DNA of 64,000 nt. Origin: an uncultured archaeon. GTDB taxonomy: Archaea; Asgardarchaeota; Thorarchaeia; Thorarchaeales; Thorarchaeaceae. This document shows, in pieces, positions 29,475-47,188 of the stretch (within the stretch, counting starts at the first letter, position 1; each line of letters begins with the position of its first letter). The stretch covers positions 20,299 through 84,298 of the forward strand of contig CAZPWM010000002.1 in the NCBI GenBank assembly GCA_964590575.1. The letters run 5' to 3'. The position numbers and the translations under genes are program-made. The notes below the pieces were generated by a model that had not been told where the DNA came from, did no database searches, and saw only the letters and a list, made by a program, of their open reading frames with translations.

Positions 29475-30045
29475 GCATTGACTCTTGTTTTAAGGCTCGA
29501 ATGTCAATATCTGCAAACCCCTCTTTGTTCCAAGTTATTCTGATACGACCATATTTCTTGTTGATTTCTCCTTCTTTTGAACCTCTAAGAATCTCTACTA
29601 ATTTTTCGGAAAGTCGATTTCTGCTACGTTTGTCAAATGGAATTGGAAGCAAGCTATTATCAGCGAGAGTGAGTGTGACCGTTTTTTCATCCAGCCTTGC
29701 AATGGGTTGTGAAAGAATGAGTCGACCCGGTTTGAAAAATGGCGTCTTATCCCTCATACTCCGAATGGTTTCTGCTAACTGACGGTGTTTGGTAATCTCT
29801 ACACTCGCAGTCTTCACCACATCTTCTAGATATTTACGTCTCTTGTCATACTTGGCCACAAAGTCTTCTTGAAGAACCTCCATTGTTTTTGTTCGGGATG
29901 AGAGACGTTGTTTGAGTATCTGTTTTATTGTCCAATTGGTTGCTGCTCCATATCTCTGAAGCTCTTCTTCAAGAATATCCTGCTTCTCTCTCGTCAGAGT
30001 GACGCTTAGTAATTTCAATATTTCAATATCCTTCATGGACAACAC
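29467..30045 (-). CDS. TnpB/Cas12f-like N-terminal (WED/REC) protein lacking RuvC
   Basis: LTREKQDILEEELQRYGAATNW, KTPFF, LPIPF and RIRITWNKEGFADIDI are collinear with the N-terminal half of the TnpB at 38495-40231; ends before the RuvC-I strand. Confidence 0.55.
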   Translation of the reverse strand: MLSMKDIEILKLLSVTLTREKQDILEEELQRYGAATNWTIKQILKQRLSSRTKTMEVLQEDFVAKYDKRRKYLEDVVKTASVEITKHRQLAETIRSMRDKTPFFKPGRLILSQPIARLDEKTVTLTLADNSLLPIPFDKRSRNRLSEKLVEILRGSKEGEINKKYGRIRITWNKEGFADIDIRALKQESMLN

Positions 30046-32420: not shown

Positions 32421-32559
32421 AGAGGATGGAGGTACACTGATTCAAAATGAATTGTAGGGTAAAAAAATTAAGTTACTACAATAACTCCTTGGCATGATTA
32501 GAGATAATCATGTTCACATTGAGTGGACAACAGGTAATACTGTGTCAATACATAAGTAG

Positions 32560-32566
<7 letters not shown>
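32421..32566 (+). other. 5' arm of the 23S processing stem, including the BHB half GACAAC-AGGT-AAT-ACTGTG (32526-32544)
   Basis: 32421-32435 pairs with 35703-35717; 32473-32491 pairs with about 35674-35695; BHB half pairs with 35656-35674. Confidence 0.85.
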
Positions 32567-35632
<3,066 letters not shown>

Positions 35633-35640
<8 letters not shown>

Positions 35641-35717
35641 CAAAAGTGTACTTCGCACAGTACCTAGGGTTGTCAAGAAGAGTTCATTGTAGTAGCGAAG
35701 TAGTATCTCCATCCTCT
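35633..35717 (+). other. 3' arm of the 23S processing stem with BHB half CACAGT-ACCT-AGG-GTTGTC (35656-35674)
   Basis: Forms a canonical 3-4-3 bulge-helix-bulge with 32526-32544. Confidence 0.85.
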
Positions 35718-35873
35718 AGTCTTACCTATCATTTTAATCCATTCCACAATTTCAAACCCAGTGGAAGTTTTACTTGGCTTTTAGGCATAGGTTCTACGAA
35801 AGGGGTGGCCTTGTGGGGTCAGAAAAAGGAAACAATAAGTAAATATGAATCTAAGTAAAGTGGTGTATCCATT

Positions 35874-36575
35874 ATGAGAGGGGAATCACATCTGACAGCT
35901 TCATTCATGATTAGCCTGCCTACTCTCATGGTTCTGTATAATATGGCACCAGATACAATGATTGACGTGATGGGTTATGTCCTTGGAGGGGTATTACTGG
36001 GTTGCTTACTACCTGATGTAGATGCTTCGGATGCCAAGGTGATGCATGGATATTGGAGGCCAATCGGTCTTTTTGGAAAATACCTATTCTATAAACCAAT
36101 GACATGGATTTTGAGAACTCGCTCTGACGCATATCGAGAGCAACACCGCGGATATTTACACTCATTTATTGGTTGTTTTCTCGCAACGATTTTCTTTGCA
36201 ATCCCGATAGCTATCATATTTCTACATTCAACATATGTACTGCTTCTTCCCTTAGAAACGACTATTTGGGTTTGGTTTGCATGGATTGGATTACCCTTTG
36301 GTTTTCTAATGCATTTGGTTGAAGACAGCTTCACAAAATCAGGAGTACGATGGATTTTTCCTGGCGGTAAAACCTATTCAAGTCAGACAACCACTGGAAA
36401 AAAGAGTGAGTATAATCTTCTATCAGCATTCGTCGTCACATATGGCATTCTCACAGTTATTGTATACATGGCGCCTCCCTCGTTTATTGTTCTATTTGGG
36501 GCTATTCTTGGATCCCTGGTTTTGTTGGGTGCGCTTTATGCGGCTAATCCGATAATTAGTAGACTTTCAAAGTAG
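35874..36575 (+). CDS. YdjM-family membrane metal-dependent hydrolase
   Basis: MRGESH, GCLLPDVD, HRGYLHS, HLVEDSFTKSG. Confidence 0.88.
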   Translation: MRGESHLTASFMISLPTLMVLYNMAPDTMIDVMGYVLGGVLLGCLLPDVDASDAKVMHGYWRPIGLFGKYLFYKPMTWILRTRSDAYREQHRGYLHSFIGCFLATIFFAIPIAIIFLHSTYVLLLPLETTIWVWFAWIGLPFGFLMHLVEDSFTKSGVRWIFPGGKTYSSQTTTGKKSEYNLLSAFVVTYGILTVIVYMAPPSFIVLFGAILGSLVLLGALYAANPIISRLSK

Positions 36576-36921
36576 ACTGGTGCCAAGTAAAAATGACCGG
36601 AAATAGAACTGTAGAAAGTGCTACTTTTCCGGGTCAGTAAGGGTTGTGGGAACAGATTAGTACTGTCAGTGTTCCAATGTCGCAAAATCATCTGGAAAGA
36701 CCGGTTGGAAATGGGTGCGGTGCGAGAGCAACTTGCCCTGTTGGAGAGAGCCTGATTCGTATTTGAATGGTCGGAAGTGCAGTCACCTCACTTGCATCCT
36801 CTTTGTCACAGTCCACCTCACGGATCGAACCCACTGGCAGGTCATGCTCCTGCAACTTTTCTCTCCACAAGCCTTGAGTATAGTATAAAAGAGCTTGCTG
36901 GAAAGATGATATCGGAGGGAA

Positions 36922-37896
36922 GTGACGTTCAAACCAGACAAACTCAGTAAGGATGCTATATCCGCAGTGAAGCAGATAATAGGTTATAGAAGCACTCCGA
37001 TGGAAGACAGACCACAAGTAGAAGATATGTTTCAGACATCATTTGGAAAAACACTTGGTAGCCAAGTTGGTGAAATTCTAGATTTTGCAAAGAGAGGACA
37101 AATTCTCCTAATAATACTTCCACTCACTAAAATCATGGAGAAATTACAGAGATTCATTCAAGATGGAAGTTATCTTAGGGCTGAGGAAAGCTCTCTATCA
37201 CCCAAAGATATTGATAAGATGAAGGCCTTTGAGGTTGTCATGCAGGATGTCGATGTTGAGGACACTGTAGAAACTGTGGAAGATGTGATAGACCAGGACG
37301 ATGAGCTCTGGTACCTGTCATTGATAACATTTACAGTGTATGCGTATGTGGATGTTTACTCGAAGAGTCTAATCAAAAGTTTGACATCAAATCCATTACT
37401 GATGGAGAAATTAGAAACATATCTTGAAAGAGAAGCGCTTCAAAATAAAGACGATATAGAGAGAAAATATGTCACATCAGTTACAGATCTCTCGCAGTAC
37501 GGAGTTAGTCGGAGGCTTTGGACCATAGAAAGAGGTCTGTCAATAGACCAGATTTTATCTAAGATCACAAATCCAGATGTTCTTAGCATAATTAGAAGCA
37601 GCTTTATCAAAATCATAAAAACAAGACATAAAATTGCACATAGAAATCCAAAGTTGAAAAGAGATGACTACACATATGAGATGTTTGAGGGTGTTTCAAA
37701 CACTGTCGAAGAATTGGATTTCACTTTTAATGAAATAGAAGAAACATTCGGATTTCTGAAGCCAATATTTGGCACAATCAAAAATCTGGGAAAGCAGACA
37801 ATGGATAGAATTAAGAGAACTATGAATATTGCCTACATGACAATGCTGTATCCAGCATTAATTGATGTAGTAGTTCACGATTTGATGGAAGATTAG
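36922..37896 (+). CDS. HEPN-domain protein (putative RNase/defence effector)
   Basis: All-helical pattern with RHKIAH (R-x4-H); TATAAAA at 36884 and GGAGGG SD before the GTG. Confidence 0.6.
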   Translation: MTFKPDKLSKDAISAVKQIIGYRSTPMEDRPQVEDMFQTSFGKTLGSQVGEILDFAKRGQILLIILPLTKIMEKLQRFIQDGSYLRAEESSLSPKDIDKMKAFEVVMQDVDVEDTVETVEDVIDQDDELWYLSLITFTVYAYVDVYSKSLIKSLTSNPLLMEKLETYLEREALQNKDDIERKYVTSVTDLSQYGVSRRLWTIERGLSIDQILSKITNPDVLSIIRSSFIKIIKTRHKIAHRNPKLKRDDYTYEMFEGVSNTVEELDFTFNEIEETFGFLKPIFGTIKNLGKQTMDRIKRTMNIAYMTMLYPALIDVVVHDLMED

Positions 37897-38185
37897 TAAT
37901 AGTGATAATGATAAGTCATTTCTAATTATGAGTAAGAATCTCTCAAAAAGGATGGTAATCGTTTCTTAGTGCACAGGGAGTGATGACTTCATAACATCGT
38001 AGGTACCCAGACTAGAAATGTGAGGTTACCATTGATCTTGAAATCGAAAACAAGACAGGACATACACTCGCACCTAATAATATGGCAATTAGCACAATGG
38101 ATGGATGGTTTAAGGGCATCCACCCACAAGTATCAGGACTACCCCAATGAAGCACCGCACCGGATACAGACACTTCGGGTGAAGT

Positions 38186-38220
38186 GAAAAAAGAGGGGGC
38201 GGCAAATTAGCACCGCCCCA
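38186..38220 (-). terminator. Intrinsic-type terminator of the SMP-like gene
   Basis: GGGGCGG...CCGCCCC stem followed by CTCTTTTTT on the minus strand. Confidence 0.65.
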
Positions 38221-38239
38221 TTGAACTGAGAATTAGTGA

Positions 38240-38368
38240 TTACTTCTTTGATCCACCTCGATCGGCTGCACTCTGTGCACGTCTAGCAAAACCTTGATTT
38301 CGACCAGACTTGGCTGAATGACTCTGGATTCTGGATGCTGAACTCTTGGACATTCCTTTTTTTCCCAA
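38240..38368 (-). CDS. 42-aa SMP/LEA-like small basic stress protein
   Basis: GGAGGTGA SD plus TTG at 38368; ASRIQSH...GFARRAQSAADR motif; own terminator. Confidence 0.7.
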   Translation of the reverse strand: MGKKGMSKSSASRIQSHSAKSGRNQGFARRAQSAADRGGSKK

Positions 38369-38452
38369 TGATTCACCTCCGTATTCATCATGAGGAATAC
38401 TTGGCAGAATCAGAATATCAGACTTTGATGATGTGCATTGCATACGAATATT

Positions 38453-38482
38453 GTGCAAATCAGATTCACAGTACCTAGAGTT
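38453..38482 (+). repeat. Left half of a degenerate second copy of the 23S 3' arm, ending in the 10-bp direct repeat ACCTAGAGTT (38473-38482)
   Basis: GTGCAAATCA vs GTGCAGATCA (35633), 9/10; CACAGTACCTAGAGTT vs CACAGTACCTAGGGTT (35656), 15/16. Confidence 0.8.
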
Positions 38483-38494
38483 AAAACCTGTATC

Positions 38495-40231
38495 TTACAA
38501 TTGTGAGTGAACTGCAAGAGACTCCTGTGTTCCACCTTTCTCACGACTACTGTCACCAGCTTCTGAATGTCTGGGGTCTTTCAGAGTGTCGCAAGCTTTG
38601 CCCCTCTTCACTGGAACATCGTTCCTCTGATGGGACCTGGCTTCTGTCCGCTGCATTGATTCACACTCACCAGTTGGTGCGATTGCAGTCGGTGTTTCCA
38701 CAGCATTTGCCATGGCAAGGTCTTTGCCCCTCACAAACTCCACAAGTGAAGTCTGGTCATAGGAGCCAGCCACGGACTCCCCTTTCGAGTCTGGTGTCCC
38801 CTGGGGGAGTGCGGACTTCCCTACAGAAGAAGACTTCTTCCTCCGGGCTTTCAGTATGGCCCTATCCTTAGAGGTGAGCCACATCCCTAGTCCGTTCTCA
38901 TCTCTCAGTGAGGGGATGAGCATGATGAGGCGCTTCCCAATGTTGAGAGCGCCATTCAGGTCGGCGTTCAGCTTTAGTCCACAAGTGGTACAGATGAAGA
39001 GATTCTGCTTCGGTCTCGCTCCCTTATGTCCGCATTTGTGACACATGATGGAGGTCCATTGCTCTGGAACTGCTTTGAACCTCTTGGGATCGAAACCAAT
39101 TGATGCGAGCTTGTGCTCCAGCATCCCACTGATTCTTGCAAAGGCCCATCGGTGAATCTTTCCCCTGTACTCTCTTCCCCTGCTGTTCCCCTTGCGGGCT
39201 ATGTTCCTGATTCCCTTCAGCCGACCGATTGAGACATAGAGGTCATTTTGGTTTGTCATCTCTCTGATGTGGTCAGAGATGTCCCTAATCAGTTTCTTGT
39301 CATACTCTATACTGATTCGTTCTCTCTTTCCACTCAGACTCCTGAGCTGTGCAGTCACTCGATCAGTGTTCTGACCTTTGGAAACAAGGAGCTCTTTCTC
39401 TTTCTGGAGTGAAGCAACCCTCTCATCCAAAGACCTTATGCGTCGGAGCTTGTCCTCTTGTTTCCAATATCTGACGTGCTTGTATCCCTTCTTGGTTAGA
39501 AGGACTGAACACGCAGCCTTGTTTATTCCAAGGTCGATGGAGAGAACAGCAAGGGGCTTTCTAGCGGTATCAATCCTGTCAACAGCAAGAGTGACGGTGA
39601 AGATAGCCCACCACTTGCGACGAGAATCCTTGAAGATTCGAACTGTCTTCACATCTCCCTCCTTCATCCTGTTTAGATGAAATGATGAGATGGAGAGGGG
39701 AATCATGAGTCTATCATGCTGATAACGCCCCTCATTCACAGAGTCCAGCGAGTCCCGTAGTTTCAACCAGTGTCTAATCTCCAGCTCTGGTGAGTATACA
39801 AGCTCAAAACGTTGGATGAATGCAAAGCGTGGGATCTTTCGAGTAGAATATCCTATTCTCCTAAGGGGTTTGGAACCACCTTTTTCAAGATAGCTCTGCC
39901 ACATGGCAACTGCAGTACCCCTACACTCCTGAAACTCGTTCACTGAAATGTTTGGAAATCGAACCTTGAAGTCATGGGGTACCGAACTTCGGTTGGCTTT
40001 GCCTCGGGATGCTGTCAGGGTGAGTTCATCTAGTTTATTTGCGTCAAGTTTACTTCGTCTACGACCTATCAGCAACTCGTCTTCGTGACATTCAATCACT
40101 CCAAGATACGCCCTGATGACTCTTGTGTCTCTTCCAGTAATTCGGTTGAGCCGAGTCTTCTGCTTGTCAGTCATAGAGTCCCAACGTATTGGGACCTTCA
40201 CACTGATTATTGTACCCTTGGAGCGACCCAT
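38495..40231 (-). CDS. tnpB: TnpB-family RNA-guided nuclease with rearranged (Fanzor-type) RuvC and a long C-terminal tail likely overlapping the omegaRNA
   Basis: RuvC-I SIDLGINK; canonical Glu replaced (VSIGRL); alternative Glu VPEQWTS; CHKC..CTTC zinc ribbon; RuvC-III NADLNGALNI. Confidence 0.9.
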   Translation of the reverse strand: MGRSKGTIISVKVPIRWDSMTDKQKTRLNRITGRDTRVIRAYLGVIECHEDELLIGRRRSKLDANKLDELTLTASRGKANRSSVPHDFKVRFPNISVNEFQECRGTAVAMWQSYLEKGGSKPLRRIGYSTRKIPRFAFIQRFELVYSPELEIRHWLKLRDSLDSVNEGRYQHDRLMIPLSISSFHLNRMKEGDVKTVRIFKDSRRKWWAIFTVTLAVDRIDTARKPLAVLSIDLGINKAACSVLLTKKGYKHVRYWKQEDKLRRIRSLDERVASLQKEKELLVSKGQNTDRVTAQLRSLSGKRERISIEYDKKLIRDISDHIREMTNQNDLYVSIGRLKGIRNIARKGNSRGREYRGKIHRWAFARISGMLEHKLASIGFDPKRFKAVPEQWTSIMCHKCGHKGARPKQNLFICTTCGLKLNADLNGALNIGKRLIMLIPSLRDENGLGMWLTSKDRAILKARRKKSSSVGKSALPQGTPDSKGESVAGSYDQTSLVEFVRGKDLAMANAVETPTAIAPTGECESMQRTEARSHQRNDVPVKRGKACDTLKDPRHSEAGDSSREKGGTQESLAVHSQL

Positions 40232-40263
40232 TCATTTCACCTGAGGATTTAAACTTCTGACCT

Positions 40264-40314
40264 GTCTCTTTCGAGTTCACTCCCTTTCTCGTCAAGATGA
40301 AAGGTTTTGAACTC
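40264..40314. repeat. ~50-bp imperfect inverted repeat of 38478-38522, bracketing tnpB
   Basis: Collinear complementary blocks GAGTT, AAAACCT, ATCTT, GAGTGAACT, AAGAGAC. Confidence 0.75.
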
Positions 40315-40480
40315 CTACTATTTTCTGTTACATAAGGGGATTTAAACTTATTAAGCCGTTTATGAAATAAGGCATTATGAGGCACTATTATTTAAAATAA
40401 GACATTATCAATCCTTATTTGACTCACCAATAAGAACGGATATCTTATAAATTAAAATATAAGGAAGATACTGATTTGAT

Positions 40481-43400
40481 ATGGGTCGCAAGCCTAGGGA
40501 GATACATCCGAATGCAATACTGACTGTCTCGATCTATACAGGACTTGCTGCATTGGTCAGGCTTGCGAGAAAGCGAGTTGACAAGAAGACACGGAAATAC
40601 CTTGAGAGCATTCTAACACATTGGAGCAAAGCTCGAGAAGAACACAAGAAGAATCGAGAGAGTGTTGGAAGACAACGACTTGACTTCTCCTCAATCAAGA
40701 ACGCAGAGTCCAACATGCGAAAATTCTTCCTCAAGATTCTCTGGCACAGTACGCGACGTTATGGGAACAAGGAATTCAAGCGGGTATACAGCTGGGAAGA
40801 GGGAACTGTTGGACCACTTAATGCATTACTCAACTACCTTGGAGCCCGACTGAGAGACCTAGCAATGACCAGATATCCATTTCCAGAACCCGAGAAATTC
40901 CAGATCAGGGTATATCCAGATGAGACAAGATTGACGGTTCAAAAGAAACACGTGTCTAATTATGCACAGGATAATGCTGAAGACACATACTGGAAGGCAG
41001 GATACAAGGGAAACAGGAAACATCCCACAGTGTTGTTGACACACCCCTCACTACCAGGATTGGACTTTGTTGATATGATACGTGCCCATGGTGTTGAGCT
41101 TGTCCGTCAGTGTTTCATCCACAATGTTCCACGGTCTGAAGCTCACAGGTACATCAGATTGTTGCTCCATAGACTCACTCCGTTCTTGGACCATGTCTAT
41201 ACTCAAGGAAAGTGTGGTAGAAACTACTTCGAGCCAGATGCCGACAAGGAGCTCAGAAGACTGGTTCTGGAGATCCGTAGTCGATACAGTGGGCGTGTGG
41301 GGAAGAAACAGTCCATATCCAGAGGTCTGGACCTGGACATCCCGGAACCCGATGTGGACATCTTGTGGAAGAAAGTGAGTGAGCTGGTTGAAAACACTCA
41401 GGACAAGAAGACAAGAAAGAGATACGGAAAGATTCTGGATAATATTGACCAAGGACTAATTGTAGACAGGGACATCCAGAAGCTCTATGACCAGGTCTTT
41501 GCCCTTGGACAGAAGGAGGGAAATGACTGGCACAGAGTCCTCCTGTCGGACCTTCACCACCCCGTGTCGTTGAGGTCTGTGATCTTTGCTGGGGACAGGA
41601 TGCTTGACAAGCCCACATCGGTCCTGATTGTAGCCGAACTCCCAGTGAAAGGACTCGAAGGGATTGGACGCATAGATTTGACCGTGTTCATCAGGCTAAA
41701 CATCAAGGGGCGCGTGTTCTGGAGTCCTGTGATGGTCATTGAGGTCAAGTCAAAGACCTCTTTCGACTTCAATCTCTATGCTGTGAAGACTGGTAAGAAG
41801 AAAGAGTGGCCCCCAGTACTATACGTATGGAAGAGAATTCTGACACAGGAGGAATGGGACAGGACCATAGAGTCAGACCCTGATGACCGGGTCTTAAAGC
41901 AACTCGAGGCCTACGAAAAGGCATTGTTGGAGGAGAGCAGGACTCTGATTCCCAATGGTGTCGAACTCCCAAAGAGGCTCCTGAAGGGAGTTATTGTGCT
42001 TGACACAGATCAGGACTACTCGGAGGTATTCAATGCTTTCCACACTCTTCTCGATGAACTGACCACTGAGATTCTCAAAGGCGGACTTGATGTGAGAGCA
42101 ACTCAGACACTGTCTCTCAAGTCAGATGATGTTGGTGTTACCATTCCACGAGTTGCACTGATGCTTCTAGAGAGCGAGAACATAGACACATTCCTCAGGG
42201 AGCAGTCAGCTACTTTGTCACTCTCTGTTGAGAATCCCTTCAAGGAGAGAGTGTCTGATGACCGTCTGCTGACACACTATGTTTCAATTTCTTCTTCAAC
42301 ATCTTTCGGGAACGCAGCAGCATGGGTTTCTAGAAACTGGCACCTTTTGAACCACATCGAGGAGGTCGCTGAAGGATTGAGTGAGGACCTACAAGTCTAC
42401 TGGCTCGATCTCTTGGGTGACTATCCATCCAAACAACTCATCAAGAGAAGGTTTGGTCTTGACACTCTATTGAAGCACAAGCAGATTGCCAAGAAGAGGC
42501 ATGAAGCACTGACCTCTCTCCTTGAGAGTATCACCTTTGTCAACCTGAGAAACAATGTTGAGTCTATTATCTCTGGGGAATCTGCCGAACTCCAAGAGAT
42601 CAAGATGAAAGGCCCTCATGACATGGAGAGAATCATCATTGTTGATGGATGGGTTCAAATCAGAGAGATGGTTTCTCCAGGTGAAGCGGACATTCTGAGA
42701 AACTTTGAAAACCACCTCTTAGATGTTCTACCCACCCAGAATGTGAATGTGATTTGGATTGACAGTGGAGTCACCCACACAAAGATGAACAAGCACTATC
42801 AGAGGGCCTGTATAAGACCTCTACGTCACGACTCCCCTCGCCGGTTTCACATAGACGAAATTATCTACAATGTACCAACTGCACCACGGTTGTTTGGTTG
42901 GAGGGTTCCAAGAAATGAGGACACGAGGTTCATCATCCAAGACACTCCAACCTCCGCAGATCCCTGGATACGACCCATAAGAGTGCCGCAACTGAGGGGA
43001 TGGGCCCGAAAGTATCGAGGAGTCACAAAAAGGGATGGATTCGTCGACCCAGCAGATGTCTATGGGATTGACTTCGAGGGAGTACCTATGTATGGTCGTT
43101 CTGTGACACTCAATGAGGTCCACTCATCGATTGCACCCCTGACATCTGAAACTGTAAAACATCTGCAAGGAATTGGAAAGACCCTCATCCCAAGTCTATC
43201 AAGGCGAGAGGAATCAGCTCCAGACAGACAGTCAACAGAGAAACAATGGAGGGGGGTTCCGTTGCCCGTCACCAGAAAGGACTCTCCTTCACTCACCGAC
43301 AGAATGACTTTCACACCTGGGAGACCTCCTCCACAGCATCACAAGAATAGGGGATTGTATGTTGATTTCTTGAAAATCAAGAGGGGCTGGTACTATGACA

Positions 43401-46120
43401 GAATCCCCATTGATATCAATGACGAGGAGTATGAGGTGGGAGTTTCCCGAAGACCACCAATATATCGAAGGACTGGACTGGATGAGGTGGATTCACAAAA
43501 AGTCCGCAGGAGAGAGGTCAAACGAGTCATGAGCGCAGCGAGATTCCTGAGAAGACAGCTTGACAAAGACAAGAATAGTCGCCTTCACTCATGCTGCGGC
43601 GACATTATCAGAGTGTGCGCAGATGTGCTCTCAGACACCCATGATGAAGAGGCCTTGTTGGTCGTTCTATCGGAGGTTAGAGGCATCATTCTCCGTGATT
43701 CTTGGAGGGCCCAACTATGGGACCTTGTTGAGAGTTCAAGAGAAACAGTTGGTGACGTCCTGACGACTGACAACAGGACTGTACTGACAATGGCTAGAGA
43801 ATTCTGTCCTGACATTCTCTCCCTCTATGGGAACAATCTGTTCCTTGCCCTTCTCACAGTTATCAAGACACACTCCCTGAAACCTTCGGAGGACGTTATC
43901 ATAGCCCTCTGGGAGTCGATGGCTGAATGGCGGTTGTACCAGATGGGATTCCGTCAGAAGGACCATGCAGAGGAGACTGCAAGTTCACAGTATGACTTCC
44001 AGTTCATCTACTCGAAGCTGGTGCTCCGAGTAGAACATCTGACTGATGTTACCACCCCACCTCTTCAAGCACCAGTCGAGGATGTGGCCTACGGCCAGCT
44101 TGTTTGGACTGAGAGAGAAGGTGCTCAGGATGTATGGGTTGTGTTACCAGACGTAAAAACGCCACTCCTTGGCCTTGAGTGCGGAGTCAGGGGTAGTGGA
44201 ATGAAGCCTGGGTGGCATCAATGCGTGACAGATCCATCTACCCTGAAGACCTCAGTCAAGACTCTATCTGAAACTACGCTGAGGAGTCAGATTGCCCGGA
44301 CCGTTATTGGGAAGACTCACATTCTATGGTTCATGGATGAGGTCGAAGGGGAGTATCAGTGGACTACACCAACAGTCTTTGAATTTGCCATCAGTAAAGA
44401 GGATGGCCGATTGCTTCGATGGTTCAGGCTCTCTCCTGTTCTTGAGAGTATCTTCTTGGAACTGGAGAAGAACAGACCCAGACAGATTCCAAGGGCTGGA
44501 ACTGATGTGGACTCTCTGCTTTTTGGAGCCTTCAAAGGTTCACAGGACATTGAAGAAGTGAAAGTCCAAGTGAGTGTGGACATTGAAAACGAACTGTACT
44601 TGGTAGAGTTCAGTTCCGGTCATGTTTTCAGAGTGAGGAACACGCATGAACTAATCGGTCTGCTCAAACATCCTTACCTGAAGGGAGCACCTCTCAGGAC
44701 AGATGATGATAGACTGTTGTTCTGGGACCATAAGAAGGACATCGAGTATGCATATGTTGTTGACAGGCGAGGGAAGAAAGGTCATGTCATAGACCTTTCA
44801 TTTCTCAGACCTCTGGTTCATCGTGCGAACCTATTTTCTCTTGGTGACTTATTTCCCAAGACCTGTGCAGATCTCCTCAACACGAGTGATGGAGGAACCA
44901 TCACTCTGGTTGCGAAGGTGGATAATAATCGTCGGAATAGGGGTGATTTCAACTTCATCAAGGTCAGACTGATAGGACTACCAAAGAGGTCGCGGTTGAA
45001 GACTCTTGAGGATGAGTGGATGAACCCATATGATTTAGAACTGATTCTTGGGTGTGAAGGATTGGTTGACTCCACTATTGGAAACAACTTCTCCCTTGAA
45101 ACAGATGTGAGTGAGCTGAGGGGTGTTCGTCTGCCTTCGGGACTGGATGAGGACTCACAACTAGTCAAATCCCTCGTTATTGAAGACGATGGAGAGGAAG
45201 AACAGAAACCGTTACTTCCGGAAGGTGAGTGGACCCTGTCCAGTAAGTTCAAGGGGGGAACTATCCAATGGAGTCTAGACTCACCACTCGCAAATCAGTT
45301 GTGGATGGGCAAGACCTTTAGTACAAGGCTGGACGGGACTCTGAGTATAGAGGAAATGGTGAAGGAGTTTATCGGGGAGCTGAAGATAGTAGGTGCATCA
45401 AAAGATAATATCCACAACTTTGATGAAGAGCTCGATGACATAAGAGAAGGACTCAGAGGATGTGGTTGGGGGAACGAGCGTCCAGAGTGTAGGGCTGAAG
45501 CTGTGCAAACTGGCGGAGGGGTCAGAATATCTCTAAGAACCTGTGGAGAGAATGAGGTCATAGTCTATGAAGATGTCATCAATCCAGGTGAAGATGATGC
45601 TGCGGACTTGGTAATCGATGCTCTTGATGATTATGAATGGTCTAAATACACTACTGTGAACAAAGAGGAGTTCAGGAGGATGTTGAGAGGAATCTTGGAC
45701 GACGAAGAGCTGGAACCAGATGTTGTTGATGTTGAAGAGGCAGAACTGCTGATGATTGTTGAAGAATGTAGAGTCGAGGGTAACCTTAGGTGGATGTGTA
45801 GTCAGACAAACACACTGGTAGATTATTACTTACGACAAGAGCGGCTTGATGTTGCTCTAGAGAAGATAGATGAGAATCTCTCAAATCTCGAGACCTTGGA
45901 CTTGGATGATGAAGATGGACGTTGGTACTTGTTCATAGCCAGAGTCTTAAGAGCTGAGATACTCCTTGCAACAAATAATCCCAAAGAGTCAAGGAAAGAA
46001 ATAGACAAAGCCTTTGAGATCATTCCTGATGATGTTGAGTTGTGGATGTTAGGAGTTGGGACAAGAAGAGAGTACTATGAGCGAGGTATGAAACTTAGAA
46101 CTGATGTAATTGATTGTTAG
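40481..46120 (+). CDS. 1,879-aa protein: PD-(D/E)xK nuclease, degenerate P-loop/RecA-like region, long uncharacterised C-terminus
   Basis: AELPV..GRIDLTVF..VIEVKSK..QLEAY; YVSISSSTSFGN, VYWLD, IIIVDGW; TPR-like terminal helices. Confidence 0.75.
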   Translation: MGRKPREIHPNAILTVSIYTGLAALVRLARKRVDKKTRKYLESILTHWSKAREEHKKNRESVGRQRLDFSSIKNAESNMRKFFLKILWHSTRRYGNKEFKRVYSWEEGTVGPLNALLNYLGARLRDLAMTRYPFPEPEKFQIRVYPDETRLTVQKKHVSNYAQDNAEDTYWKAGYKGNRKHPTVLLTHPSLPGLDFVDMIRAHGVELVRQCFIHNVPRSEAHRYIRLLLHRLTPFLDHVYTQGKCGRNYFEPDADKELRRLVLEIRSRYSGRVGKKQSISRGLDLDIPEPDVDILWKKVSELVENTQDKKTRKRYGKILDNIDQGLIVDRDIQKLYDQVFALGQKEGNDWHRVLLSDLHHPVSLRSVIFAGDRMLDKPTSVLIVAELPVKGLEGIGRIDLTVFIRLNIKGRVFWSPVMVIEVKSKTSFDFNLYAVKTGKKKEWPPVLYVWKRILTQEEWDRTIESDPDDRVLKQLEAYEKALLEESRTLIPNGVELPKRLLKGVIVLDTDQDYSEVFNAFHTLLDELTTEILKGGLDVRATQTLSLKSDDVGVTIPRVALMLLESENIDTFLREQSATLSLSVENPFKERVSDDRLLTHYVSISSSTSFGNAAAWVSRNWHLLNHIEEVAEGLSEDLQVYWLDLLGDYPSKQLIKRRFGLDTLLKHKQIAKKRHEALTSLLESITFVNLRNNVESIISGESAELQEIKMKGPHDMERIIIVDGWVQIREMVSPGEADILRNFENHLLDVLPTQNVNVIWIDSGVTHTKMNKHYQRACIRPLRHDSPRRFHIDEIIYNVPTAPRLFGWRVPRNEDTRFIIQDTPTSADPWIRPIRVPQLRGWARKYRGVTKRDGFVDPADVYGIDFEGVPMYGRSVTLNEVHSSIAPLTSETVKHLQGIGKTLIPSLSRREESAPDRQSTEKQWRGVPLPVTRKDSPSLTDRMTFTPGRPPPQHHKNRGLYVDFLKIKRGWYYDRIPIDINDEEYEVGVSRRPPIYRRTGLDEVDSQKVRRREVKRVMSAARFLRRQLDKDKNSRLHSCCGDIIRVCADVLSDTHDEEALLVVLSEVRGIILRDSWRAQLWDLVESSRETVGDVLTTDNRTVLTMAREFCPDILSLYGNNLFLALLTVIKTHSLKPSEDVIIALWESMAEWRLYQMGFRQKDHAEETASSQYDFQFIYSKLVLRVEHLTDVTTPPLQAPVEDVAYGQLVWTEREGAQDVWVVLPDVKTPLLGLECGVRGSGMKPGWHQCVTDPSTLKTSVKTLSETTLRSQIARTVIGKTHILWFMDEVEGEYQWTTPTVFEFAISKEDGRLLRWFRLSPVLESIFLELEKNRPRQIPRAGTDVDSLLFGAFKGSQDIEEVKVQVSVDIENELYLVEFSSGHVFRVRNTHELIGLLKHPYLKGAPLRTDDDRLLFWDHKKDIEYAYVVDRRGKKGHVIDLSFLRPLVHRANLFSLGDLFPKTCADLLNTSDGGTITLVAKVDNNRRNRGDFNFIKVRLIGLPKRSRLKTLEDEWMNPYDLELILGCEGLVDSTIGNNFSLETDVSELRGVRLPSGLDEDSQLVKSLVIEDDGEEEQKPLLPEGEWTLSSKFKGGTIQWSLDSPLANQLWMGKTFSTRLDGTLSIEEMVKEFIGELKIVGASKDNIHNFDEELDDIREGLRGCGWGNERPECRAEAVQTGGGVRISLRTCGENEVIVYEDVINPGEDDAADLVIDALDDYEWSKYTTVNKEEFRRMLRGILDDEELEPDVVDVEEAELLMIVEECRVEGNLRWMCSQTNTLVDYYLRQERLDVALEKIDENLSNLETLDLDDEDGRWYLFIARVLRAEILLATNNPKESRKEIDKAFEIIPDDVELWMLGVGTRREYYERGMKLRTDVIDC

Positions 46121-46123
46121 ACA

Positions 46124-46179
46124 ACCTAGAGTTGTTCAAGGAATGTGTGTTGTAGTAATGAATAGTATCTCCATCTTCT
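46124..46179 (+). repeat. Right half of the degenerate 23S 3'-arm copy, starting with ACCTAGAGTT
   Basis: ACCTAGAGTTGTTCAAG..TTGTAGTA..TAGTATCTCCATCTTCT aligns with 35662-35717. Confidence 0.85.
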
Positions 46180-46218
46180 GATGTCTTTATTTTTCTCCTT
46201 GCATTTTATGAAACAGCA

Positions 46219-47188
46219 ACCTCCATCCTTTGTTGTCGTTTTTTTTCTTTTTCACAAACGTTGATTAGATAAACCAAAACTGAGAATCATTACGATGATT
46301 CAGAGAGTTCTATTGTTCAGAAACCTACTAGATAACATACCTAAGAACATTGGACTATACTCAGTGGGCGTCATGCTTCTTTTTCTGTTTCGTGTCACAT
46401 TTGACCCATTGCAATTGCTGTTGGGACTGCTTGCCTTCATGGTTTCTTATTCATCGATTTATGTGCTTAACGATCTATATGATATTGAAGACGACAAGAA
46501 AGATGAAAAGAAAGTTCTGAGAAAACCCTTAGCTCAGGGCGTCGTGAATAGAAGCGAAGCTGTGAAGATTTTCCTTTCATTTTTGATTCTGGGTCTTCTA
46601 CTCTCTATTTTTCTCAATATGTTATTCTTCTGTGTAGTTAGCTCATTAGTCTTCATCAACATGATTTACTCTATTCCATTAACAACAAACACGAACCAGA
46701 GCATAGAAGAGGTGAGTCCAAGAAGATTGAAACACACTATGTTTGGACCATTTCTAGTTTTCCTCATGCAATTTCTGAAGATTTTCCTTCCTTGGACATT
46801 TAACACAGAGGTGATGCAATTTCCAGTTCTTTTTGCTATCGGATTTTCTCTCGTCTATGTTATACTTTTCAAAGGTTACAAAGAATATCGCACTATTGGA
46901 GAATCTGTCAAGCAGACACCGTTTTCCTTTTGCTTCGCGATTGTTGTTTTCTTATTGTCAATGAGCATATATCCCGAACCTTTAGTTCAAGCATCAATAG
47001 TACTCTACATAATTGCAGGAATCATGTTCTTCTGGAATTCACACATTACTGATAGAAGGATCTTACTATTGAGCCCAATCTATATCCTTCTAGGAATTCT
47101 GATCTTGTTCTATTTAATGACAAATGTACTGACCTGACAACAAAGTTATGCTTGATGAGTAGCACGTGACCTCCATCACTTGTTGTCG
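46219..47188 (+). repeat. 18/20-bp direct repeats flanking the ubiA-like gene
   Basis: ACCTCCATCCTTTGTTGTCG (46219-46238) and ACCTCCATCACTTGTTGTCG (47169-47188). Confidence 0.6.
46295..47137 (+). CDS. UbiA-family prenyltransferase-like membrane protein
   Basis: YVLNDLYDIEDD..RKPLAQG; multiple TM helices. Confidence 0.8.
   Translation: MIQRVLLFRNLLDNIPKNIGLYSVGVMLLFLFRVTFDPLQLLLGLLAFMVSYSSIYVLNDLYDIEDDKKDEKKVLRKPLAQGVVNRSEAVKIFLSFLILGLLLSIFLNMLFFCVVSSLVFINMIYSIPLTTNTNQSIEEVSPRRLKHTMFGPFLVFLMQFLKIFLPWTFNTEVMQFPVLFAIGFSLVYVILFKGYKEYRTIGESVKQTPFSFCFAIVVFLLSMSIYPEPLVQASIVLYIIAGIMFFWNSHITDRRILLLSPIYILLGILILFYLMTNVLT

Follow-up and report, generated by a model that had tools for sequence, protein, structure and literature searches.

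Here we describe a TnpB-like gene, its predicted omegaRNA and the large inserted unit to which both belong, in a stretch of 64,000 nucleotides (nt) from an uncultured archaeon of the Thorarchaeaceae. The window, as we call this whole stretch, covers positions 20299-84298 of contig C2 in a genome of 3.4 Mb that is 91% complete. Just past the right end of the unit lies a 16-nt sequence that would serve as the guide of the omegaRNA, and this sequence is almost identical to one arm of the stem from which the host's own 23S rRNA is processed. The explanation that we favor, and to which we assign a probability of roughly 0.7, is that the omegaRNA is real and that its guide equals the 23S arm since the unit landed in a displaced, paralogous copy of the 23S flank, after a cassette had already settled behind the gene; its role would be one in retention or homing. 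As far as the sequences go, the match between guide and rRNA flank is best explained as a consequence of the landing place and not as evidence of regulated self-targeting.

The predicted guide and the two copies of the 23S 3' flank

In the TnpB-omegaRNA (OMEGA) systems of IS200/IS605 elements, such as ISDra2, a structured RNA shares its sequence with the 3' end of the nuclease gene, and the flank next to it serves as the guide, which matches the unoccupied site. By the same logic, the predicted guide in the window is formed by the first 16 nt of flank past the element end (38467-38482, minus strand), conservation among copies stopping at 38483. On the plus strand, these positions read CACAGTACCTAGAGTT, and 35656-35671 (plus strand) read CACAGTACCTAGGGTT; both 16-mers are exactly as the initial annotation had given them and differ at one base (15/16 identical). 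Sites with at most one mismatch to the 16-mer are limited to these two in the whole 3.4 Mb genome; by our estimate, chance would give about 0.08 such hits over the genome and about 2e-4 within +/-5 kb. Sites with two mismatches number five genome-wide, equal to a reversed control pattern. The same whole-genome scan left no unoccupied perfect target of the guide in this genome.

The 23S rRNA gene itself (32562-35641, plus strand; Rfam RF02540, 2494.9 bits) is now contiguous with a 3' flank that we call F1 (35656-35724, plus strand; the "G" variant), in which the 15/16 site makes up the first 16 positions. Cofolding 32505-32561 with 35642-35700 yields ACUGUG/CACAGU, a bulge AAU, AGGU/ACCU, a bulge AGG, and GACAAC/GUUGUC. 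This is the succession of helix, 3-nt bulge, 4-bp helix, 3-nt bulge and helix, built from the 5' and 3' flanks, by which an archaeal bulge-helix-bulge (BHB) is recognized, and 35656-35671 had rightly been read as a BHB arm: it is the 3' arm of a canonical one, formed with 32525-32545. The 16-mer takes in one strand each of the outer helix and the 4-bp central helix, together with the bulge of 3 nt, and it reaches three bases into the lower helix; in the 3' bulge, the third nt is the base at which the two sites differ.

A second copy of the flank (F2) lies 2.8 kb downstream of F1 and is split by a 7,641-bp insert, which stands between the two copies of a 10-bp direct repeat ACCTAGAGTT (38473-38482 and 46124-46133, recognized by comparing the junctions); the 10-nt match that had been noted at the far junction is thereby located. 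The left remnant of F2 is the guide sequence itself, and its right part (46134-46190, plus strand), which aligns with 35672-35724, leads to a UbiA-like gene starting at 46295. An F2-type flank followed by a UbiA homologue is the arrangement found in relatives as well. When 38483-46133 is removed, 38467-38482 is joined to 46134 onward, and the joined sequence (38467-38482 plus 46134-46200) aligns with 35656-35724 over about 71 columns. The window therefore holds two copies of the 23S 3' flank, and the guide does match the rebuilt empty site, as had been claimed. For an anchored 10-mer repeat within 10 kb, we estimate a chance expectation of about 0.01. We also considered F2 as the remnant of a pseudo-23S gene and rejected this, as no rRNA homology is present left of 38467.

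Which of the two copies is the older form can be read from the genus comparison set of 28 genomes (27 sisters and the window genome). The F2 form (AGAGTT) stands directly behind the 23S 3' end in 11 of 15 distinct flank copies from the relatives' loci. The F1 form (AGGGTT...) is a minority form associated with the YdjM cassette described below, and its G variant occurs in four genomes, including that of the window. Of the 27 sister genomes, 14 contain the guide 16-mer without a mismatch and 19 contain it when one mismatch is allowed; nine of the perfect sites fall within matches to the 23S end. Comparison of the flanks shows the interrupted F2 to be the variant that most genomes of the genus have directly behind 23S.

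Between the two flank copies lies a cassette of about 2.7-2.8 kb (35725-38466), delimited by its open reading frames (ORFs) and the flank alignment. It holds a YdjM-like ORF (35874-36575, plus strand; Pfam, 58.9 bits), a HEPN-like ORF (36922-37896, plus strand; RiboL-PSP-HEPN, 22.3 bits, which is under the cut-off of 28.4) and a 72-aa ORF (38240-38458, minus strand). In one relative (G013), the YdjM part is present alone, 94.6% identical and flanked by copies of the 23S end. More generally, the interval from 23S to UbiA in relatives contains two to six direct repeats, each made of the final 23-60 nt of 23S and 35-90 nt of the flank behind it; these repeats, 0.8-2.9 kb apart, bracket cassettes encoding leucine-rich repeat (LRR) proteins, an esterase, YdjM and unknowns (loci L037, G002:C33:1-8400; L038, G013:C34; L039, G001:C32; and L040, G016:C18, among others). 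The 23S 3' end looks like the anchor of a cassette hot spot in Thorarchaeota, judged by these arrays. No integrase was found among the eight ORFs scanned in the relatives' cassettes or the three cassette ORFs of the window, and our literature search turned up no published description of a 23S cassette hot spot or of an rRNA-flank guide.

Put together, the favored course of events would be as follows. First, a cassette that brought along a 23S 3' flank of its own would have integrated behind 23S; the original flank would have been pushed 2.8 kb downstream and thereby have become redundant; and the TnpB unit would then have inserted into this spare original flank. The guide would read AACUCUAGGUACUGUG, the genus-wide 3' arm of the 23S BHB, because the unit entered the spare copy, and the 15/16 match to the working arm would exist because the two arms are paralogues. 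Had the unit entered the working stem instead, the fold predicts that the lower helix would have been broken. By established TnpB biology, the ribonucleoprotein (RNP) would recognize a target-adjacent motif (TAM) together with the 16-mer, that is, a copy of the site that is still unoccupied, and by analogy such recognition would help the element to be retained or to home.

Whether the RNP could also act on the working arm would depend on small differences, which the initial annotation took as a possible protection of the essential rDNA. The single mismatch between guide and F1 is an rU-dG wobble at guide position 4, a kind of mismatch that is well tolerated in Cas9 and Cas12 work. F1 further differs from the empty site at the TAM-side positions -3 and -4; the 5'-adjacent words on the minus strand, CCTTGAAC for the empty site (46141-46134) and TCTTGAC for the rRNA (35678-35672), are both present where the initial annotation had placed them. 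At the sequence level, no sign of an attack on the working 23S arm was seen. Aligning the left flanks of full copies, tnpB-only copies and mini copies revealed no shared flank word that could be the TAM; the left ends are a layering of promoter, partner gene and deletion variants, and at the two orthologous candidates for an empty site (G008:C337 and G034:C14) the left boundary is ambiguous.

The omegaRNA scaffold and the TnpB protein

The boundary on which the guide depends comes from sister copies of the right end. A query made of the last 341 nt of tnpB plus flank, run against the 28 genus genomes, gave 64 matches elsewhere, of which 20 stop at 38483-38481, three extend 5-11 nt beyond and 41 end earlier. 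The aligned ends share ...GTTCACTCAC..TGTAAGA.A.GGGTTTT, after which the flanks diverge and are unrelated between copies. The proposed element boundary at 38483 is hence where conservation drops, and an earlier end of the scaffold (at 38507), which had been named as the alternative, does not appear in the alignment.

The tnpB-like gene has 578 codons (38495-40231, minus strand), and only codons 1-450 (40231-38882) behave as protein-coding. Over codons 1-450 of the six full copies, variability at the third codon position exceeds that at the first two by a factor of 2-5, and over codons 451-578 the three positions vary alike (0.18/0.19/0.27, 0.18/0.29/0.26, 0.24/0.20/0.14 and 0.22/0.18/0.28). 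The earlier suggestion that some 120 low-complexity codons represent an RNA scaffold agrees with this loss of periodicity. The frame is nonetheless open across codons 451-578 in all six copies. In two of 20 homologues (P0084 and P0099), the conserved GGUGACAG..GGUGGAACACAG stretch lies in a shifted frame, and the 20-member protein alignment has them translate LVTA..R.VEHRS where the others have AGDSSREKGGTQ; the conservation therefore lies in the nucleotides. Judged by these substitution patterns, it is RNA structure and not protein that constrains the final ~385-415 nt of the 578-codon frame.

Folding agrees with this. An RNAalifold consensus of 21 distinct copies contains 62 pairs, with 97.3% of cells paired, and 18 of the 62 pairs covary, versus 7.4 +/- 1.7 in 500 shuffles, none of which reaches 18; slid controls, in which partners were shifted by 1-3 columns, gave 4-9 covarying pairs. 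The scaffold ends in a terminal hairpin (38494-38518, minus strand; by-eye alignment and single-sequence fold) whose loop, GUUCACUCAC (38512-38503), is invariant; a short linker that ends in GGUUUU at 38483 follows the hairpin. Read by eye, the same loop sits on different stems in different subfamilies (ACA/TGT, ATA/TAT, GGAGT/ACTCC, AGTTG/CAACT and AACAGT/ACTGTT). Gene-less copies delimit the other end: nine of the 21 units compared share only the last 450-690 nt, and in these mini copies the tnpB leader runs directly into GAACGGACTAGGG, at a point equivalent to about 38897 of the window. Taking this junction as the 5' limit, the scaffold measures about 415 nt (38483-38897, minus strand) and lies within the open tnpB frame.

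The comparison of copies thus shows 38483-38897 to encode a conserved, structured RNA with the anatomy of a TnpB omegaRNA, including a flank-encoded guide in a flank specific to each copy. Covariation, loss of periodicity and frame-shifted readings all speak for the scaffold overlapping the 3' end of tnpB that had been postulated. In three metatranscriptome runs, tnpB is represented by contigs that extend from 40259 to 38611-38625, are deepest over 38611-38830 and leave 38446-38536 uncovered; they differ from the window at 1-6 positions and hence derive from related copies, and contigs of this kind cannot show RNA ends. A contig from a DNA run is identical to the window over 38231-38623 and spans the junction of right end and flank. 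In a single-sequence fold of the minus-strand RNA, the 5' start of the scaffold (ACGG.CUAGGG, 38885-38894) pairs with the guide (CUCUAG.., 38470-38480), a pairing that is probably due to chance but would mask the guide.

The protein encoded by codons 1-450 is recognizable as TnpB-like. It matches the TNB zinc ribbon of Pfam (PF07282; 51.2 bits, cut-off 26.3) and scores just below the cut-off of the NCBIfam model NF040570 guided_TnpB (94.4 bits versus 100), and its closest solved chains are TnpB and Cas12f (E 1.6e-7 to 1e-6). Across the 20 aligned homologues, the RuvC-I aspartate D233 (IDLG; 20/20), the RuvC-III aspartate D424 (NADLN) and the zinc-ribbon cysteines C397, C400, C414 and C417 are invariant, as is E390 (PE.WTS), which lies in the strand before the zinc ribbon. 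Family members typically measure 559-631 aa, and both tnpB and the partner gene discussed below are intact and full length relative to their homologues. Source records label the tnpB relatives Candidatus Thorarchaeota.

The inserted unit and the competing explanations

The initial annotation spoke of an "element" at this locus. A real inserted unit is present, but its extent is another one: the unit consists of tnpB with its omegaRNA and of a conserved partner gene of 1,879 aa, together 7,641 bp (38483-46123). Its extent is supported by paralogous units of equal length on contig C64 (74.7% over 7,662 nt) and at G012:C270; similarity to the paralogous units ends at 46095-46106, and flank homology restarts at 46124. 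The partner gene (P0002; 40481-46120, plus strand) starts 250 nt from tnpB, runs divergently from it and ends 3 nt short of the far end of the unit. Of 26 left-end loci, 15 have the N-terminus of this partner upstream of tnpB.

The partner family comprises 78 clusters, assigned to Thorarchaeota, Lokiarchaeota or Promethearchaeati where the source names them, and has no Pfam domain. The protein, searched whole or in five segments, gave no Pfam match except a weak TPR, and no NCBIfam, PADLOC or Cas1 match. An AlphaFold model of residues 1-840 (pLDDT 83.7, pTM 0.80) matches ATPase domains of the RecA/DnaB/RAD51 type at fold level (E 1e-4, TM ~0.45 to the targets). A D399...E421-x-K423 motif, read by eye, is located on a beta-sheet; together with weak NucS/Mrr leads from the atlas (score <=0.81), it suggests a PD-(D/E)xK nuclease.

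Several points weigh against the landing-place explanation and are gathered here. The guide is placed at 38482-38467 by TnpB logic plus the conservation drop, an assignment made by analogy with studied TnpBs, and the order of the two insertions is a proposed one. The canonical RuvC-II glutamate position is occupied by G336 (VSIGRLKGI) in 20/20 homologues and in all four copies of the window genome, so that the predicted nuclease activity would depend on a relocated glutamate, for which E390 is the candidate. Profile searches of the window genome, run alongside 14 controls, gave no match for the Y1 transposase (PF01797; controls positive in 6/14) in this 91%-complete genome and none for Cas1 (PF01867; controls positive in 9/14) at E <= 1. 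IS200/IS605-type transposition makes no target duplication, and the window copy has a 10-bp repeat despite this expectation. At the same time, no target duplication beyond chance was found in two other composite copies and some 14 further copies (9-11-mers only). Finally, Altae-Tran et al. 2023 (PMC10691335) describe a "hypervariable region" in Asgard TnpB loci upstream of the GTTCACTCA motif, which may be a different position for the guide.

The most serious competitor grants the guide a purpose: the 23S 3' arm would be a homing or safe-harbor site, and the RNP would cut or bind flank copies, thus driving spread and recombination of the cassette arrays. The conservation of the guide sequence (perfect in 14/27 sister genomes), the two- to sixfold repetition of the 23S 3' end and flank around 0.8-2.9 kb cassettes in relatives, and the position of the unit in the perfectly matching copy and not in the variant one would all fit this. 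The wider survey speaks against it, however. In relatives, 14 contigs match the 23S end, and none of them reappears among those that match the right end; the six cassette-array loci examined gave no match to TnpB. An exact pattern of right end plus this guide had no match in species-representative genomes and JGI metagenome contigs, and a looser one found 101 loci, 0/101 with the right-end motif. The guides of about 25 other copies are unrelated sequences without any relation to rRNA, so that, on present comparisons, nothing ties the tnpB family to rRNA in general, and homing by recombination would have left no 10-bp repeat. We consider purposeful targeting unlikely. In a bolder version, the TnpB unit would invade the 23S processing stem site-specifically under the direction of its guide: the omegaRNA would be tuned to the BHB 3' arm common to the genus, cuts at flank copies would seed the recombination by which cassettes are stacked, and the nuclease/ATPase-like partner would insert the unit with a 10-bp duplication. 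This would amount to a new type of RNA-guided transposon in Asgard archaea, and we regard it as improbable. Action at the RNA level, with the guide or the 3' tail pairing with the pre-23S 3' trailer and so disturbing or sensing BHB formation, can point to full complementarity with the pre-rRNA 3' arm save for one G-U pair (-26.0 kcal/mol, versus -26.8 for the perfect partner), but this complementarity follows automatically from the DNA match, and other copies show no relation to rRNA. We know of no RNA-targeting TnpB and hold this reading to be very improbable.

Two further explanations concern what the unit makes and not where it points. The TnpB could be a nuclease-dead, DNA-binding RNP (like TldR or Cas12k) whose guide marks a site for the nuclease or ATPase of its partner, for example for insertion. 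The missing RuvC-II glutamate, the conservation of the partner in 15/26 loci, its PD-(D/E)xK-like motif and RecA-like fold, and a 10-bp target duplication that is not a TnpA-type product would suit such a binder. Against it, both RuvC aspartates and the candidate replacement glutamate are invariant, many copies have no partner, and PMC10691335 treats the same Glu-to-Gly change as rearrangement and not as inactivation. We rate this as unlikely. Lastly, there could be no RNA at all, the 3' 125 codons being a disordered protein tail and the 16-mer match a coincidence. The frame being open in 6/6 full copies and the typical family length of 559-631 aa go with this. Yet codon periodicity is absent there, pairs covary, gene-less mini copies exist, 2/20 homologues have shifted frames, and the match grows to about 71 columns once the insert is removed, and we give a protein tail hardly any credence.

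Related systems and further observations

Like the OMEGA systems of the ISDra2 type, the locus has a gene with RuvC and zinc-ribbon regions and a 3'-overlapping, structured RNA that ends at the right end. Unlike them, it has a scaffold of about 415 nt wholly inside the open frame, a glycine at RuvC-II, no Y1 TnpA found in the genome, a 10-bp direct repeat and a 1,879-aa partner. A domesticated TnpB of the TldR type was also considered and set aside: the gene is multi-copy, its flanks are unrelated and both aspartates are kept. The tRNA-gene integrative elements offer another comparison, as they are aimed at the 3' end of a stable-RNA gene and bring a copy of this end with them. Similarly, direct repeats of the 23S 3' end and flank bracket the cassettes here, and the incoming copy keeps the gene intact. 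On the other hand, the target is the 23S 3' end with its processing stem, the cassettes are as small as 0.8-2.9 kb, and the ORFs scanned include no integrase.

In its motifs, the protein resembles the RuvC-II-rearranged TnpBs (RIIr-5 and related clades) of PMC10691335, with which it shares the Glu-to-Gly change and an NADxN RuvC-III motif. According to the same paper, RuvC-II Glu-to-Gly is found in "rearranged" clades, a substitute glutamate lies in beta-5 and activity is argued to be retained; the invariant E390 stands in the strand before the zinc ribbon, where the substitute is placed, which makes it a candidate for that role. The Asgard loci of PMC10691335 in which TnpB is associated with aCas1 (Cas1H-Asgard-1/2) share the Asgard host and the GTTCACTCA motif downstream of the nuclease domains. 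They differ in that neither the window genome nor the partner yielded a Cas1, and in that GTTCACTCA lies here 20 nt upstream of the variable flank and not downstream of it. Because neither Y1 nor Cas1 was found, the unit would stand outside both the IS200/IS605 elements and the published aCas1-TnpB transposons.

The significance of the locus lies first in being a natural case of a transposon guide aimed at a conserved sequence beside an essential gene, namely the 23S processing stem, and it illustrates how such a guide can have a harmless origin, an earlier cassette having probably made the original stem redundant. Moreover, it provides coordinates for an uncharacterized clade of Asgard TnpBs that combines a long in-frame omegaRNA, a rearranged RuvC, mini copies and a giant partner. 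The perfect site and the one-wobble site form a ready pair of substrates for the mismatch and TAM tolerance of a rearranged TnpB.

At the other end of tnpB, a BRE/TATA promoter-like stretch (~40356-40340) and the 5' leader (40276-40360, minus strand) are conserved in at least 20 copies, which suggests a promoter. The leader contains a palindrome GAGTTCA...TGAACTC, and, by eye, the ~40 nt that close the right end (38483-38517) reappear at 40276-40317 in inverted and imperfect form, including the GTTCACTC word. This inverted copy could be the terminal inverted repeat of a tnpB-only unit or a site where leader and omegaRNA pair. Mini elements of about 455-690 nt, whose module corresponds to about 38483-38897 of the window, are common in the genus (e.g., L121, L122, L125, L127-L129 and L131-L133); several of them lie at contig ends, and some have an upstream stretch that resembles another right end (ATGTAAGATTT).

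Flanking repeats set two kinds of copy apart: that of the window, with 10 nt at offset 0, and the C11a type, with a 22-mer. In the C11a subfamily, whose tnpB is 67% identical, three genomes have an identical 22-mer (AGCCAAGCTAGRCCACCGACCC) behind the right end and a second copy of it 2,140 nt upstream, before the tnpB promoter (G000:C11:27507-27528 and 29650-29671, corresponding to L004 1200-1221 and 3343-3364; also L134, G031:C56, and L136, G012:C383). It could be a conserved guide aimed at the element's own left border or an att-like repeat; a tRNA as the target of this repeat was rejected, there being no tRNA adjacent. Among the passengers behind 23S, the HEPN-like ORF beside the YdjM-like membrane protein may be of a defense or toxin type. 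An unrelated repeat of about 110 nt (75-85% identity), seen at L125:10166-10278 (G015:C254) and in more than 50 other places across 13 of the 28 genomes, is probably another miniature mobile element.

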